From Escherichia virus TH47, in sequence record MT446416.1: a DNA stretch of 64,000 bases; one strand, written 5' to 3'. Positions 1,537 to 59,831 of the stretch are shown in pieces; positions within the stretch are counted from its first letter, which is position 1; the number at the start of each line of letters is the position of its first letter. Under the pieces are notes generated by a model. It had not been told where the DNA came from. It did no database searches and saw nothing but the letters and a program-made list of their open reading frames with translations. Both the position numbers and the translations under genes were made by a program.

Positions 1537-3823
1537 ACGCAATAACTTTTTCTACTGCTTTAGTTCGTTTAGGTTTGATTGCCAATTTACCATCAATCAC
1601 ATCAAACGTTACGTTACCACCATTAACCAGAGAACCACACAACATCTCTTTAGCTAGTGGGACACGGATGTTTTGCTCAATAGTGCGTTTCATTGGACGT
1701 GCACCCATTCCAACTTTAACACCATTTGTTGCCAACCACTCACGAGCCGCTTTGGTCAGTGAAACTTTAACTTTGCGGTCTTTGATTTGTTCATTCAAAC
1801 TTCCCATGAACTTATCAATGATGCTGTCAATCGCTTCGCTGCTTAGGTCTTTGAATGTCACAATACTATCGATACGGTTGATGAATTCAGGTGGCAAGAA
1901 TGCTTTAATCGCTTTATCTTGTGCTGTATCACTACCGCTCATCCCAATACTACGCTTGGTTGAATCTGCTGCACCAAGGTTAGTCGTCATAATAACAGTT
2001 ACGTTATTGAAGTAAACAGTTTTACCTTGTGAACCAGTCAAACGTCCTTCGTCCAGAACCTGTAGGAAGGTTAGTAGTACTTTACGATCAGCTTTTTCGA
2101 TTTCATCGAGCAACAGTACTGCATTCGGGAACTGCTCAATCTTGTCGAGTAGCAGACCGTTACCAGAATCGTGACCAACATAGCCTGGAGGTGAACCAAT
2201 CAGTTTAGCAACAGTATGTTCCTGTGAAAACTCGGACATATCGAAACGAATCAGTTCAGAACCAGTTGCATCAGCCAGTGCTTTGGTAATTTCAGTTTTA
2301 CCAGTACCAGATGGCCCAACAAACATGAATGCACCTTGAACACTTGATTTATCACGCAGACCAGCACGAGCTACCATCACGTTATCAACCAGTTTCTGTA
2401 CTGCTTCTTCTTGACCGTATACACGAGAACGGAGTGCATCTGGTAGATTACGCATACGTTCACTTTCAGTGCAAGCAACCACGTTAATATCTAGGTTTGC
2501 GATACCTGCAACAACTTCTTGAATCAGTGCAACAGTGATGATGTTATCATCAGTTTCACGAGAACGTACTTTCGCTGCCGCCGCATCCATTAGGTCGATT
2601 GCTTTGTCAGGGAAGTGTTTGTTCTTCAGGAACTTATCACTTAGTGTAATAACTGCATCCATTGCTTCAGTACTGAACTCTACGTTATGGAAAGTTTCAT
2701 AAGTAGATTTCAAACCATTCACAATCGCACGGGTTTCATCAATTGATGGCTCAACTACATCAATTTTCATGAAACGACGAGTTAGTGCACTATCTTTTTC
2801 GATGTTTTTACGATATTCATCGTAAGTTGTTGCACCGATTACACGAATCTCACCACGAGATAGTGCAGGTTTGAGCATGTTGCTCATATCCATAGAACCG
2901 TTGCTTGCTGAACCAGCACCAACCATAATATGGATTTCATCGATGAACACAATAGTGTTTTCACGTTTCTTCAGTTCTTTTAGTAGGTTATCGATACGTT
3001 CTTCGAACTCACCACGGTACTTAGTACCAGCAGTCAGTGCACCTACGTTCAGAGACAGAATTTCAACATCTTTAAGATGCTCTGGTACTTCACCATCAGC
3101 GATTGCCTGTGCTAGACCATCAATGATTTGAGTTTTACCAACACCAGCTTCACCAGTCAGGATGGCATTCTTCTTAGTCTTACGGGCCAGAGTTTCAATC
3201 AGTGCAGAAAGCTCTTTCTGGCGACCAATCATTGGGTCAAGTTTACCTTCTTTTGCAAGTGCTGTTAGGTTAGTGGTGTAATCTTCTAAACCTTTTTGTT
3301 TGGACGATGGTTGCTGTTGTGCCACTTTTTTCTCCCCAGTTGGCTCATCACTAATGCTTTGAAGGTTGATTCCGTTGTCGATTGCTTCTACGTGCTTCTG
3401 TAGAGTTCGTGCTGCTTCAGTACAAGTGATACCCTCTTCACGCAATGCTGCTTCTAGTGCAGTATTTGGGAAGGACAAACACTCAAACAGTACAAAATAA
3501 GCATCAATTGAGAAATCATCACGTTTAAGTTGCTCAATTACTGATTTCTTAGAAAGTTCCTGAACTACACGGTTCACGAGAAGTGATGTGCGGTTCGCTT
3601 CATCACCATCAGCACTTTTAGGTGCATGTGGGAATGTTGTATTCTTCAGATATGCAATCAAACGACCGTGTAGGTTGTCTGCATCGATGTTCATATCTTC
3701 AAATACTGCTTTGATGCTATCGATTGTCAGTACTGTAGCACTTAGATGGTCAATAGTCAAGAAGGTATGACCCAGAGAAGTTGCCAGTTCGTCGCTTTTT
3801 TTGAATAATTGGGTAAGATTCAT
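1535..3823 (-). CDS. ClpA-like two-domain AAA+ unfoldase (Clp ATPase family)
   Basis: Clp N-domain-like N-terminus; two Walker A motifs (GEAGVGKT, GPSGTGKT) and Walker B motifs (VFIDEIH, LLLDEIEKA); start placed at ATG with AGGAGA RBS (ORF track starts at upstream GTG 3847). Confidence 0.9.
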   Translation of the reverse strand: MNLTQLFKKSDELATSLGHTFLTIDHLSATVLTIDSIKAVFEDMNIDADNLHGRLIAYLKNTTFPHAPKSADGDEANRTSLLVNRVVQELSKKSVIEQLKRDDFSIDAYFVLFECLSFPNTALEAALREEGITCTEAARTLQKHVEAIDNGINLQSISDEPTGEKKVAQQQPSSKQKGLEDYTTNLTALAKEGKLDPMIGRQKELSALIETLARKTKKNAILTGEAGVGKTQIIDGLAQAIADGEVPEHLKDVEILSLNVGALTAGTKYRGEFEERIDNLLKELKKRENTIVFIDEIHIMVGAGSASNGSMDMSNMLKPALSRGEIRVIGATTYDEYRKNIEKDSALTRRFMKIDVVEPSIDETRAIVNGLKSTYETFHNVEFSTEAMDAVITLSDKFLKNKHFPDKAIDLMDAAAAKVRSRETDDNIITVALIQEVVAGIANLDINVVACTESERMRNLPDALRSRVYGQEEAVQKLVDNVMVARAGLRDKSSVQGAFMFVGPSGTGKTEITKALADATGSELIRFDMSEFSQEHTVAKLIGSPPGYVGHDSGNGLLLDKIEQFPNAVLLLDEIEKADRKVLLTFLQVLDEGRLTGSQGKTVYFNNVTVIMTTNLGAADSTKRSIGMSGSDTAQDKAIKAFLPPEFINRIDSIVTFKDLSSEAIDSIIDKFMGSLNEQIKDRKVKVSLTKAAREWLATNGVKVGMGARPMKRTIEQNIRVPLAKEMLCGSLVNGGNVTFDVIDGKLAIKPKRTKAVEKVIA

Positions 3824-24350: not shown

Positions 24351-25760
24351 TTAGCTACGTTGACGCTTTTTGTCAGCTTCATATTCGTAGTGTACAGTTT
24401 CGCCAAATGGTGCTTGTTTGTTAGGATTACTGTGGATAACAAACAGTGTCTTACAGTAATCAGGATCACCCCATGACTGCCACGGCTCACCATCGGTAAA
24501 CATAATAAGCTGTTTAGGCTTATAGTTGTCATGCTTCATATGAACCCATACTGCTTCAAAGTCAGTACCACCACCACCTTTCACTGGATATTCGAGAATC
24601 TTACTCTCTTCACCAGTTTTGTAATCTTTAACAGTATAAACTTCAGTATCGAACGTCATGATACGGATTTTAAATTGTTTAAACTGCTTAGTGATACCCA
24701 GTACTTCACTGATGAAATCACGGAGCATATCTTCAGAGATAGAACCGGATGCATCTAGTGCAATTGCAATATCAATATCATCATCTGGTTTCATGCCTGG
24801 GAAGATTGGATTCCCGTAGAATGAACCAGTACTACCAAAACCAGCACCCCATGAACGACGATTAGGACTTTGATAAGTTGCGTCAGACTTCAACCAGCTA
24901 CGCAGTGTGCGGTGAAGTTTGGAACGCCAGTCAATCTTAGGTTCTTTGAAGTTGTTAATCATACGTGCGATTTCAGCAGGAGTACCACCTGCACGAGCAG
25001 CATTCATCATTGCTGTTTTGAAATCATCCATATAATCACGTTTTTGTTTATCACTTGAACCACCTTCTTGACCTTCTTGTGGAACGTCATGCTGGTCGAT
25101 TGTTGTACCTTTGCCTTTACCATCTTTGATATCACCAAAAGTACCGCGTGATTTACCTTCACCCTCACCACTACCAGCCTGTGGATTTCCTTCACCTTCC
25201 CCGTCTTGATCCTGTTTATCTTCTTCTTCGAGAATGTTATAAATCTCTTCAGCAGTCATACCATCGTACTTTTTATCGTACAGCCATTGGCTTTGGATTT
25301 TACCAATTTTATCACGAACAAGAATCTGGTTAATTGCATAGTCAGCAGCACGGTTATAACGCTGCGGGTCACGCATACCACGACGCAAGAAGTGGTCATA
25401 TGCACAGTGAAGAATCTCATGACAGATAACTGCAATCAGGTTTTCATCAGTCAAACCTTCTGTCATTTCTTTAAGTTGTTCTTCAGTTACTTCAGGATGT
25501 TTCTCACGAATTGCTTCTTCGTATGCGGACTTTTTGGATTGGTCCTGAATACCCATGATGAATTCTACGTTGTAGAATAAATGCTTACCATCTACTGCCA
25601 AAGTACGACACCATGTATTGTTTGCAACTGGACGCAGACGAGAAGCCAGTACACCAAAGAATGGGAATGTTAGCATTAAAGATGTGCGAGCTAAGATCAG
25701 ACGATCTTGACATTCTTTCTGGAGAGCCGGAGTAACATCACTGAAACGTTTATCTGACAT
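24351..25760 (-). CDS. vWA-domain protein with N-terminal HExxH metallopeptidase-like domain (CobT-like)
   Basis: HEILHCAYDH (HExxH) plus MIDAS DASGS in DIDIAIALDASGSISEDM; GAGGAAA RBS; directly downstream of the AAA5 ATPase. Confidence 0.75.
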   Translation of the reverse strand: MSDKRFSDVTPALQKECQDRLILARTSLMLTFPFFGVLASRLRPVANNTWCRTLAVDGKHLFYNVEFIMGIQDQSKKSAYEEAIREKHPEVTEEQLKEMTEGLTDENLIAVICHEILHCAYDHFLRRGMRDPQRYNRAADYAINQILVRDKIGKIQSQWLYDKKYDGMTAEEIYNILEEEDKQDQDGEGEGNPQAGSGEGEGKSRGTFGDIKDGKGKGTTIDQHDVPQEGQEGGSSDKQKRDYMDDFKTAMMNAARAGGTPAEIARMINNFKEPKIDWRSKLHRTLRSWLKSDATYQSPNRRSWGAGFGSTGSFYGNPIFPGMKPDDDIDIAIALDASGSISEDMLRDFISEVLGITKQFKQFKIRIMTFDTEVYTVKDYKTGEESKILEYPVKGGGGTDFEAVWVHMKHDNYKPKQLIMFTDGEPWQSWGDPDYCKTLFVIHSNPNKQAPFGETVHYEYEADKKRQRS

Positions 25761-25835
25761 TTGTATTTCCTCGTTTAGTTAAGATAAAAGAAGGATACCA
25801 TGTGGTATCCTCCTTGTCAACACTCTTTTTAATTA

Positions 25836-27164
25836 TTAACCAAGAGAGCGTGCTTTACGTACTAGGTCAGAGTACTTCATAACGAAGTCTTTAAACGCTG
25901 GTACATCTTTAATCGTAATCGCTACTTTATGAAGCGTGATGGTACGAATCGCCAGTACTGCCAGTTCTGCTTGAGTTGCAGAGAAGTTATGGTCTAGGAA
26001 GGTGATGAAGTTGTTGCACAGCTTACCCCAATCTTCCACTGGTAGACGTTGTTCTTGCTTCTCATTGTAGAGGTCGATAATTTTGTAAACCAGATTCAGA
26101 GTGATGAAGTAGTTCGCGGAAATATCAAGCGAAGCATCAATCTCTTTAATCTCACCCTGTAGGATGGACATGGTATCTGGTAGTTTAGCTACGTTATCAA
26201 CATACTCGATGTATTCAGTTGCTACGCCTTCACCAACACGACCTGCAATCATCGCACGGAACACTTCTTTATCAATGTTCTTAACTTTCTTCAGATCTTC
26301 GTAGCGTGCTACTGCTTCCCATGAACGTGGAGAAGTACCACCACAGTGAGAAGGATCTTGTGGGCTAAGGGTGTTGAAGTGTTTAGCACCAGTGTTGTTG
26401 ATGAACGCAACAGTTGCTGGGTTCAAACGCTTGCCAATCGCATAATCGTTAATCCAATCTTGATGATAAGGAATCATTTCGATGTGGGTCATACGGTCAC
26501 GCAGTGGTGTAGCTAGAGAGAACGTTACACCGCCATCAGTTTCACGGTTACCTGCTGCGAGAATCAGTGCAGTCTTAGGTAGCTTCATCTCACCAACACA
26601 ACGGTCGAGGATTAGCTGGTAAGACGCTGCCTGTACAATCGGCATTGCAGAGTTGATTTCGTCAAACAGGATAACACCTTTCCAATCATCGGGCAATTTC
26701 AGTACTTTTGGTGCTGCCCACACAACTGCTGTTTCAGCGATGTAATCTTGTGCACTAGCCAGTTCAGATTCAATCAGTTGCTTACCATCCATATCAAGGA
26801 ACACTTTCTCTGGAACTGGAATACCACGAAGGTCACTTGGTTCAATCTGAGACAAACGGAAATCGATAAAGTTAGTGTCTTGGTCGATTAGTTTGGCTTC
26901 AAACGCTGCCAGTTCACGGCGAAGTTGATCGGCATTTTCAGTATCAGCTTCGATTTGTTGTTTCATGAACTCAATTTTTGCCACGTTATCTTTACGCAGT
27001 GGGTAGTTCTCATCAGCGTATTGACGTGCGATAGCAGATTTACCGATACCAGGGCTACCCCAAATCATCAGGCTATCTTGAATCATGTCAGCCAGTGCCA
27101 TTGCTTCTTTAGCTTTCTTAGGAGTCAGTTTTACGTTCAGGATATCGTTGTTTTGAGTAGACAT
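25836..27164 (-). CDS. MoxR/CobS-type AAA+ ATPase (AAA_5 family)
   Basis: Walker A GSPGIGKS, Walker B ILFDEINSA; AAGGAAA RBS. Confidence 0.8.
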   Translation of the reverse strand: MSTQNNDILNVKLTPKKAKEAMALADMIQDSLMIWGSPGIGKSAIARQYADENYPLRKDNVAKIEFMKQQIEADTENADQLRRELAAFEAKLIDQDTNFIDFRLSQIEPSDLRGIPVPEKVFLDMDGKQLIESELASAQDYIAETAVVWAAPKVLKLPDDWKGVILFDEINSAMPIVQAASYQLILDRCVGEMKLPKTALILAAGNRETDGGVTFSLATPLRDRMTHIEMIPYHQDWINDYAIGKRLNPATVAFINNTGAKHFNTLSPQDPSHCGGTSPRSWEAVARYEDLKKVKNIDKEVFRAMIAGRVGEGVATEYIEYVDNVAKLPDTMSILQGEIKEIDASLDISANYFITLNLVYKIIDLYNEKQEQRLPVEDWGKLCNNFITFLDHNFSATQAELAVLAIRTITLHKVAITIKDVPAFKDFVMKYSDLVRKARSLG

Positions 27165-27230
27165 GTATATTTTCCTTTTGTTGGATAAAATCGTTTAGGT
27201 TTCTATTATAGCCAATCCGTGGGCAAAAGT

Positions 27231-27273
27231 AAAGGAACTGTGTTAAAAGAATTTTTAACTTATCAGTTCCTTT
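27231..27273 (-). promoter_or_regulatory. extended palindromic hairpin in the 5' leader of the AAA5 ATPase operon
   Basis: perfect 10-bp stem AAAGGAACTG/CAGTTCCTTT enclosing an inner 7-bp palindrome GTTAAAA/TTTTAAC; lies between the promoters and the start codon. Confidence 0.5.
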
Positions 27274-27335
27274 GTTACTTCATGAATCATCCGTGTATTT
27301 AAAAAGGCATTTCTCTTTGCCGTCTTGATGTGGTC

Positions 27336-27363
27336 ATTATATCACATCGTTCAGGCTTGTCAA
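27336..27363 (-). promoter_or_regulatory. sigma70 consensus promoter, proximal copy (TTGACA-N16-TGaTATAAT)
   Basis: exact -35 and extended -10 with 16-nt spacer and A-rich UP-like tract upstream on the minus strand. Confidence 0.65.
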
Positions 27364-27429
27364 CAACTTTTTTTTATTTCTTTTTCAATCTCACATCTTG
27401 TGATTTTGAAAACTTGCTTCGTGGTGGTC

Positions 27430-27457
27430 ATTATATCACATCATTCGGCGTTGTCAA
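27430..27457 (-). promoter_or_regulatory. sigma70 consensus promoter, distal tandem copy
   Basis: second copy of the same CATTATATCACAT-N8-TTGTCAACA module 94 nt upstream of the first. Confidence 0.65.
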
Positions 27458-27484
27458 CATCTTTTTTTTTCTTTATTTTCGAAG

Positions 27485-27862
27485 CTACATGTGCATCGAA
27501 ATTAACATTCTAAAATCATCACCACACAATGTTAACTCTGTAACTATCATTGCGTCAGAGAGGTATATGTACTGCCCTTCAACATAGTAGGGTGAAGTAC
27601 ATATCCTATCAAGCGATGTAAAGATTATAGAACTTTTGAACTCTCTTTGCAAGGGGATTTTTGTAAATTCGTAAAGAATGTTTTCTTTACAAATTGTATA
27701 TCCAAACTTGCTAAGTCTTAAACCACCGCCAGTTCTGAAATTTTCAAAAATTGACATCAGAAGCATACGGTCTGTTAATTCAGCGTCTGATCCATGTACT
27801 TCTCTAACTTTTAAAAGTACATCGTTTTGAAATTCAGTACTGTTGTGTGGTTCAGGGATCAT
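27485..27862 (-). CDS. hypothetical protein
   Basis: 125-aa ORF, ATG start overlapping upstream stop. Confidence 0.5.
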   Translation of the reverse strand: MIPEPHNSTEFQNDVLLKVREVHGSDAELTDRMLLMSIFENFRTGGGLRLSKFGYTICKENILYEFTKIPLQREFKSSIIFTSLDRICTSPYYVEGQYIYLSDAMIVTELTLCGDDFRMLISMHM

Positions 27863-27865
27863 ATA

Positions 27866-28258
27866 TTACATCCCCACAAAACCCTGTCTTGCTGCATATG
27901 AAGGAGCATCTTTAACTTTATAGTCTTGGACACCATCTTTACCAATTTTCGGACCCATATCTTTGGTTCCGAAGCAGCAATCAGTGGATTCATCAACTTC
28001 TTCAGTACTTTCATCATTATATCGAACATCCGATAAAATGTCACACGCTTTTTGAAGCTTTTCTACGATTTCTTTTTGATCTTCACCTGATTTAACCTTA
28101 TCCACAATGTGGATAAGGCATTCGGTGATATCTTTAAGTAAATCGGTGGCTACAGCATCAGAAGGAGTCTCAACTGCAAAACTTTCTTCTTCAGTAGATT
28201 CTTCACTAGAAGTGATTTCATCTAATGCTTCAACCAATTCACGATAATTATATCCCAT
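27866..28258 (-). CDS. hypothetical acidic protein
   Basis: 130-aa ORF in tight operon packing. Confidence 0.5.
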   Translation of the reverse strand: MGYNYRELVEALDEITSSEESTEEESFAVETPSDAVATDLLKDITECLIHIVDKVKSGEDQKEIVEKLQKACDILSDVRYNDESTEEVDESTDCCFGTKDMGPKIGKDGVQDYKVKDAPSYAARQGFVGM

Positions 28259-59516: not shown

Positions 59517-59831
59517 TTAATCCTCGGATTTAATTTTAACCTTAACATCTTGATTTTGTAAATCACGAATAGTTTTAATTAATGCATCATGTTTTAGTGC
59601 ACAGTCATTGTACATTGCATCCCATTTTGCAAGTACTGCAAGAATTTCAGCACCATCATATCCTCTGAACCCGTTTTTATCGACCATGATCTTACTTGGT
59701 AGTGGTGTGTTTTCATCACAACGTTCAAGTAAGATTTCTTGTTCTACAATTGGCTTAGGTTGATACTTAATTTCTTCAGCACAACCACTAATTAATAGAA
59801 AAGAAATTGCAAATACTAAAGCGTATTTCAT
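59517..59831 (-). CDS. o-spanin (outer-membrane lipoprotein lysis component)
   Basis: signal peptide with lipobox LISGC, short mature protein; start overlaps i-spanin stop. Confidence 0.65.
   Translation of the reverse strand: MKYALVFAISFLLISGCAEEIKYQPKPIVEQEILLERCDENTPLPSKIMVDKNGFRGYDGAEILAVLAKWDAMYNDCALKHDALIKTIRDLQNQDVKVKIKSED

Follow-up and report, generated by a model that had tools for sequence, protein, structure and literature searches.

In the PR' cassette of bacteriophage lambda, a strong promoter is followed, about 50-200 nt on and ahead of the downstream gene(s), by an intrinsic terminator (PR'-6S RNA-tR'); a short RNA is made by default, and Q acts in antitermination. A second known arrangement is that of the 3'-UTR small RNAs, in which a promoter at the end of a transcription unit, upstream of the terminator of that unit, gives rise to a short RNA that shares its terminator with the mRNA. 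Closest to the element described here are two terminators predicted in jumbo phages. The GenBank record of phage G17 carries a putative "terminator" feature at 228253-228289 (ARNold, -9.2), and Torf215 of phage CBB (AGCACTGAAAACTCAGTGCTtTTCTTTTTATCAA, -10.9, ARNold) is listed in Table S8 of PMC5259590. Both are orthologues of the palindrome that is the subject of this study, lying in the same gap between a 125-aa gene and an ATPase gene and having the same hairpin-plus-T-tail form. The kind of element is known already, and its orthologues had been predicted as terminators.

The window, by which we mean the whole stretch of DNA that was analysed, comprises 64 kb out of a genome of ~350-385 kb. 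It is 99% identical to Escherichia phages WPEC3, EC.P1, Ecwhy_1 and fEgEco12 and shows ~86% identity to 121Q, PBECO4 and G17 (Asteriusvirus, 350-385 kb), and it comes from an Asteriusvirus-like jumbo coliphage. All genes at the locus are on the minus strand, in the order two virion structural genes, the 125-aa gene, a 320-bp intergenic region and a gene for a 442-aa ATPase. The 125-aa gene (27485-27862, minus strand), identified from its ORF and homology and of unknown function, is the last of the upstream structural-gene cluster. A survey of hairpins in the window found no terminator-like site between its stop codon and the palindrome, which makes the latter the first terminator of the cluster. 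The stretch upstream of the 125-aa gene is occupied by a structural gene (27866-28258). Inside that gene there is another palindrome, CCTTATCCACAATGTGGATAAGG (28096-28118), with perfect 10-bp arms and a 3-nt spacer; since it has no T-tract, it falls outside the terminator class.

On the 3' side of the palindrome, the MoxR-type AAA+ ATPase gene occupies 25836-27164 on the minus strand, with its ATG at 27164 and a Shine-Dalgarno sequence at ~27171-27177. The gene had been labelled AAA5 in the original prediction; Pfam returned weak matches to AAA, AAA_3 and Mg_chelatase only, AAA_5 being absent. The ATPase gene has a terminator of its own at 25810-25793 (minus strand), 25 nt past its stop codon, which the original prediction had overlooked. 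The region of this terminator (25792-25820) is overlapped by a promoter-like sequence, TTGACA-17-TATCCT. The gene beyond it (24351-25760, minus strand) encodes DUF2201_N metallopeptidase-like and VWA-like domains and forms a MoxR-VWA pair with the ATPase gene; genes of the DUF2201/VWA type are the usual partners of MoxR ATPases.

The palindrome at 27231-27273 has the anatomy that had been described for it. The outer arms, AAAGGAACTG (27231-27240) and CAGTTCCTTT (27264-27273), are perfect complements set 23 nt apart, and the inner arms, GTTAAAA (27242-27248) and TTTTAAC (27253-27259), are also complementary, the spacer reading GTTAAAA-GAAT-TTTTAAC. The placement between tandem promoters and the ATPase ATG was likewise confirmed; what had been missed is that the minus strand is the relevant one. 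In minus-strand RNA, the outer stem (27273-27264 with 27240-27231) is topped by the inner stem (27259-27253 with 27248-27242) and an apical loop (27252-27249). When the leader RNA was folded, the minus-strand sequence 27285-27220 formed a two-tier hairpin with a free energy of -17.8 kcal/mol (z = -4.65), and none of 200 shuffled sequences folded as well. The core stem, GGAACUG/CAGUUCC, has 7 bp with four G:C pairs and is extended by A:U pairs at the foot and by the inner stem, giving a composite helix of ~17 bp with an internal loop. Directly after the G/C part of the stem comes a U-rich tract, UUUACUUUUG (27224-27233, minus strand), read from the sequence; eight of its ten residues are U, it is interrupted at positions 4-5 (UUUAC...), and the AAA at the foot of the stem pairs with its first three U.

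Taken alone, an inverted repeat with perfect 10-bp arms is not unusual in this DNA. The window holds nine perfect inverted repeats with arms of at least 10 bp and spacers of 3-30 nt, compared with 2.9 +/- 1.5 (maximum 6) in 60 order-1 shuffles, and seven of these nine, including 27231-27273, share a form made up of an A-tract, a GG-rich stem and a T-tract. One repeat of a different form, ATCTTACTTG...CAAGTAAGAT (59689-59735), has perfect 10-bp arms and a 27-nt spacer. The exact nested pattern at 27231-27273 occurs once in the window and was seen in none of 100 shuffles.

About 14 other minus-strand hairpins in the window are of a like style, with GG-rich stems and TTTTCTTTT-type tails. In the survey of terminators in the window, the hairpin at 27231-27273 scored -11.2 kcal/mol, most others falling between -9 and -17 kcal/mol. 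It stands apart from them in two respects: its loop of 23 nt exceeds the 3-11 nt of the others, and its distance from the preceding stop codon is 214 nt, where most of the others lie at 5-25 nt. The palindrome is most probably the DNA image of a Rho-independent terminator hairpin in the minus-strand RNA, and a promoter-proximal one. It has what is expected of an intrinsic terminator, namely a stable, G/C-containing hairpin, a U-rich tract on the 3' side, a non-coding position at the end of a transcription unit and compensatory changes in the stem. The assignment of 27231-27273 was made from exact complementarity, the RNA fold, covariation and the terminator annotation of the orthologues. The element is intergenic, it is the first terminator-like site past the structural-gene cluster, and it has the same position in all relatives.

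For the comparison with relatives, regions upstream of the ATPase gene were collected from GenBank phages, IMG/VR and metagenomes, and removal of duplicates left 21 distinct lineages, which include Asteriusvirus, Alcyoneusvirus (RaK2), Mimasvirus (GAP32, CBB), Eneladusvirus (BF, Yen9-04), Erwinia phage Hallingskeid and uncultivated relatives. The identity of the ATPase goes down to 54% across this set and falls from there to ~28% beyond it, in N4-like and rV5-like phages. A hairpin at the equivalent place, followed by a T-rich tail, was present in all 21 lineages. The sequence of the stem changes from one lineage to another: it reads GGAACTG in the window, GGACTG in RaK2, GGCACT(G) in BF, Yen9-04, Hallingskeid and L014, GACACTG in L013 and L015, GCACTGA in GAP32 and CBB, and GCACAGC in L034. 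In L040 and L041 it has been replaced by an unrelated GGCTCC/GGAGCC stem, with flanks and tail unchanged. The spacing between the arms, or loop, ranges from 4 to 23 nt, and the nested inner stem is found only in the clades nearest to the window (Asteriusvirus and nearby). The tails of the relatives read TTCTTTTG, CTCTTTTG or TCTTTTTT(GCC). The leader is single-copy in each of the genomes of 45 relatives that have it. A search for other copies, which had been proposed as a check, gave no further copies within the window and one per genome in the 45 relatives.

In a MAFFT alignment of these sequences, 90.9% of the cells were paired and 6 of the 10 pairs had changed on both sides, a covariation score that was reached by none of 500 shuffles. 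In slid controls the paired fraction fell to 20-52%, and pairing peaked sharply at slide 0. RaK2 accounts for most of the cells that do not pair; its stem is 1 bp shorter and is shifted by one alignment column. RNAalifold, run on the whole leaders, predicted this helix alone, with compensatory changes in five of eight pairs. A helix that is kept while its sequence and arm spacing vary fits an RNA structure and disfavours the half-sites of a protein dimer.

The original prediction had offered a dimeric-repressor operator as one meaning of the palindrome. The site would then bind a dimeric repressor or activator that controls a promoter at the palindrome foot (P3, see below) or blocks elongation from the promoters upstream. 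We consider this highly improbable. The 10-bp arms are indeed perfect, in Asteriusvirus the -35 hexamer of P3 shares bases with the palindrome foot, and both arms co-vary, as would also be expected of a DNA palindrome that co-evolves with its binding protein. It is on the variable spacing and the one-sided T-rich tail that the case against such a palindrome depends. There is no conserved half-site among the 21 lineages (arms GGAACTG, GGACTG, GGCACT(G), GACACTG, GCACTGA, GCACAGC and GGCTCC) and no fixed half-site spacing (4-23 nt), while the T-rich tail is constant; moreover, there is one copy per genome, P3 is missing from most of the lineages that bear the hairpin, and the form of the palindrome is common to six other terminator palindromes in the window.

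An RNase III site, the second of the proposed meanings, is very unlikely too, whether as a processing site or, in a related version, as a 5' stabilising hairpin of the ATPase mRNA. RNase III needs roughly two helical turns (~20 bp). The composite helix of the window comes nearest to this, with its ~17 bp and internal loop; it is confined to Asteriusvirus and nearby clades, the stems of most other lineages having 8-13 bp, and the constant U-rich tail would be left unexplained.

The promoters around the hairpin were identified as matches to the sigma-70 consensus. P1 (27363-27336, minus strand) reads TTGACA-16-TGaTATAAT, matches the consensus at 12 of 12 positions and has an A-rich upstream tract. 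P2 (27457-27430, minus strand), 94 nt upstream, is a second copy of the same type, again 12/12 and with an extended -10 and an A-rich tract upstream. The two are part of a 57-nt direct repeat (27330-27386 and 27424-27480) whose copies are 84% identical, lie 94 nt apart and contain one perfect extended -10 promoter each. Only three 12/12 promoters exist in the whole window, the third being at 3889-3862. Between the two repeat copies there is a 14-bp imperfect hairpin (27382-27412). A third promoter-like sequence near the hairpin, P3 (27233-27205, minus strand; TTTACT-17-TATAAT, 10/12), which the original prediction had not included, sits between the hairpin and the ATPase ATG and overlaps the foot of the palindrome, its -35 hexamer being formed by the hairpin foot and U-tract. 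P3 is invariant in four Asteriusvirus subclades. At its position, RaK2 has TATCAT and Hallingskeid TGGTATAAT; P3 is absent from the Mimasvirus and Eneladusvirus lineages, and most of the hairpin-bearing lineages are without it.

Every lineage has a predicted promoter in the interval from the final stop codon of the upstream cluster to the hairpin. It is of the type TTGACA-16-TGnTATAAT in Asteriusvirus and RaK2 and GGGACA-17-TATAAT in L013-L015, and in the Mimasvirus and Eneladusvirus lineages it reads GTGAAACG-N16-TATAAT, a promoter of the class called "divergent RpoD-like" in CBB and GAP32 (PMC5259590). In CBB, GTGAAACG-N16-TATAAT lies ~100-135 nt upstream of the ATPase start, 5' of Torf215. 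This copy is not in the published promoter table of CBB, for which only 100 bp upstream of ORFs were scanned (PMC5259590), and it was probably missed owing to that limit. A search of the literature turned up no transcriptomes or RNA-end maps of Asteriusvirus- or RaK2-like phages; for PA5oct, RNA-seq data exist.

Several records place small "hypothetical protein" ORFs on the promoter repeats or the conserved leader (SHEFM2K, SD-1/2/6/15, JP4, E9.1, BAU.Micro_ELP-22 and, at 3038-3130, WPEC3); the ATG of the WPEC3 ORF is estimated from its position to fall within the -10 hexamer of P2. These ORFs look spurious, and recognition of the leader may help to annotate such records.

Elsewhere in the window, strong promoters lie either 32-46 nt from their ATG or abutting a hairpin. 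At four terminators (55842-55822, 58892-58867, 49087-49067 and 44017-43998, all minus strand), the U-tract runs straight into the next GGAG ribosome-binding site and ATG. Where a promoter adjoins a hairpin, the -10 ends 1-4 nt before it, as at 49119-49091 (TTGACT-17-TATAAT), so that RNA synthesis would begin within the stem and avoid termination. This compact layout of terminator and promoter looks like a general one in this phage, and the locus at 27231-27273 is the exception to it. Here, the end of the -10 is 63 nt from the stem for P1, and 30-37 nt from it in the compact lineages; with the -10 this far 5' of the stem, the transcript would hold the whole hairpin.

From this arrangement, we infer that the promoters fire and that transcription stops, in part, at the hairpin. 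The hairpin would end the transcripts of the upstream structural genes and, as P2 and P1 lie past the final stop codon of the cluster and ahead of the hairpin, it would also truncate most of the transcripts from these promoters. The predicted products are short RNAs of ~105 nt from P1 and ~200 nt from P2, and of ~58 nt in the compact, GAP32-like relatives. The remaining polymerases would read through into the ATPase gene, which in Asteriusvirus may be served in addition by the weaker P3 just past the hairpin. Since the conserved terminator sits after, not before, a conserved strong promoter, the arrangement predicts an abundant short RNA together with attenuated expression of the MoxR-type ATPase.

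The leader from the ribosome-binding site to just 5' of the hairpin (27165-27300, 136 nt) is 95.6% identical to that of 121Q, as against 90% for the ATPase gene, 86% for the 125-aa gene, 73% for the structural gene and 66-81% for the promoter repeats; by this measure, the genes around it are less well conserved than the non-coding leader. A comparison of four Asteriusvirus subclades shows no change in either arm, the tail, the P1 core, the P3 hexamers or two CGGAT motifs; variation is limited to the apical loop and, in phage A4, a short spacer.

Two GGA-containing elements flank the hairpin. On the upstream side, an ANGGA motif, ACACGGAUGA (27287-27296, minus strand), was read from the sequence 14 nt 5' of the hairpin; 19 of the 21 lineages have A-N-GGA 8-25 nt 5' of the hairpin, and in Asteriusvirus it is invariant. 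Directly past the U-tract is a second, small hairpin, GCCCACGGAUUGGC (27211-27224, minus strand), with GGA in its loop. A small hairpin at this place, carrying an invariant GGA in a loop of 3-7 nt, was again seen in 19 of the 21 lineages, with a stem of 3-10 bp (3 bp in the window) that covaries (caaa/tttg, caga/tctg, ctta/taag, ctcaa/ttgag, ccaaa/tttgg). No such GGA flanks were found at the other terminators of the window, and only two other GGA-loop hairpins with a stem of at least 5 bp exist on the minus strand of the 64 kb. A scan of IMG/VR for the same junction at other loci (TTTTN{0,4}CAAAYGGATTTG) gave more than 120 scattered matches on unrelated contigs, which is the level expected by chance.

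Lying beyond the U-tract, the GGA hairpin would be present only in read-through RNA, and the fact that it is conserved speaks for the importance of such transcripts. There are two points to set against an efficient terminator. The interrupted U-tract and long loop could make its efficiency low, and, since a second hairpin is kept 3' of the U-tract, the main role of the element in read-through transcripts may be a different one from stopping transcription. Of the readings that follow, regulated read-through and a short RNA with its own function would refine the promoter-proximal terminator rather than exclude it.

One of these readings is that the promoter, short 5' region and terminator make up the gene of a small RNA, with a terminator used in common with the upstream operon; the hairpin would form the 3' end of a functional small RNA, and the ATPase would be transcribed mainly from elsewhere. 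We regard this as possible, if unlikely. The unit is compact in the GAP32-like phages, where the ~58 nt would comprise ~26 nt of single-stranded RNA, the hairpin and a U-tail behind a strong, conserved promoter; short motifs (UUAAGA, ANGGA) are conserved in the 5' part, and the layout is like that of 3'-UTR small RNAs with their own promoter. Against it, the 5' part is conserved between genera only in very short stretches and varies in length from 26 to ~125 nt, there is no Rfam match, and the conserved hairpin past the U-tract would be excluded from such an RNA. A search for antisense targets, in which the 5' part of the RNA was compared with 107 start regions in the window, gave a best value of -23.5 kcal/mol, the shuffled mean being -24.5 kcal/mol.

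Of the meanings given in the original prediction, an attenuator structure in the mRNA leader came closest. The part that stood is the terminator anatomy 3' of the promoters, that is, a terminator in the 5' leader downstream of a predicted promoter; what was lacking is a conserved antiterminator helix, a leader peptide or an Rfam family. RNAalifold, applied to the leaders in search of a conserved antiterminator helix or sensor domain, found the terminator helix only, and an Rfam search of 26900-27900 at E <= 10 returned only chance-level matches, with no family near threshold. Two candidates were considered and rejected. A leader peptide might start at AUGGAU, which is found 5' of the hairpin in many lineages; the ATG is ACG or AAG in several of them, and the frames differ. 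A possible pairing of AGCAUUG with CAGUGCU, noticed by eye in GAP32 and CBB, is not conserved; it falls in the stretch from the -10 to the start site. The element would be at most a constitutive or factor-dependent promoter-proximal terminator.

The factor-dependent version is a regulated attenuator or antitermination target, at which termination would be efficient unless a phage or host factor acts, thereby timing the expression of the ATPase from P1 and P2. Candidates for the factor would be an RNA-binding protein at the ANGGA motifs or a promoter-loaded modifier of the polymerase, as lambda Q is. This version strikes us as rather doubtful. It would account for the placement of the hairpin, in every lineage, after conserved promoters and ahead of the gene, for a non-coding leader more conserved than the genes, and for the ANGGA kept on both sides, the downstream one being in a covarying loop and in read-through RNA only. 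On the other hand, the leaders yielded neither a conserved alternative helix nor a conserved leader peptide and matched no known riboswitch or leader family, and in Asteriusvirus P3, past the hairpin, could by itself serve the ATPase.

The GGA motifs bear on a further, more speculative reading. The published recognition pattern of CsrA is ANGGA or [A/C]UGGA displayed in the apical loop of a hairpin (PMC5207318), and the (N)GGA(N) loop of the hairpin past the U-tract resembles it. The whole cassette of promoter, ANGGA, terminator and ANGGA hairpin might be a conserved regulatory RNA module of RaK2-like Enterobacterales jumbo phages that engages the CsrA/RsmA of the host, which seems to us quite unlikely. 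If it did, the abundant short RNA and the leader would titrate CsrA or, alternatively, the MoxR-type ATPase of the phage would be under CsrA control, and the terminator would set the ratio of short RNA to read-through mRNA.

Whichever refinement applies, a promoter-proximal terminator at this locus makes concrete predictions about the transcription architecture of a poorly studied group of giant phages. Compared with the known systems, the element goes beyond what was annotated in G17 and CBB, where it appears as a plain terminator of the upstream gene, and where the promoter between stop codon and hairpin, the nested stem and the ANGGA flanks are not described. It resembles small RNAs of the DapZ/MicL type in having a promoter at the end of a unit, upstream of its terminator, and differs from them in that the promoter is intergenic rather than inside the upstream coding sequence. 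With CsrA/RsmA sites it shares the flanking hairpin, whose loop displays A(U/C)GGA(U) in 19 of the 21 lineages; another ANGGA is found 5' of the terminator, and the known hosts of these phages are all Enterobacterales; this likeness concerns the flanks, not the palindrome, the stem in the window has 3 bp only, and the Shine-Dalgarno sequence of the ATPase gene carries GGA in some lineages only. As in the lambda PR' cassette, a strong promoter and a nearby terminator are predicted from the sequence ahead of the gene, with a short RNA as the presumptive default product. The downstream unit here is a single ATPase gene, not a late operon, and the likeness to lambda is one of arrangement alone.
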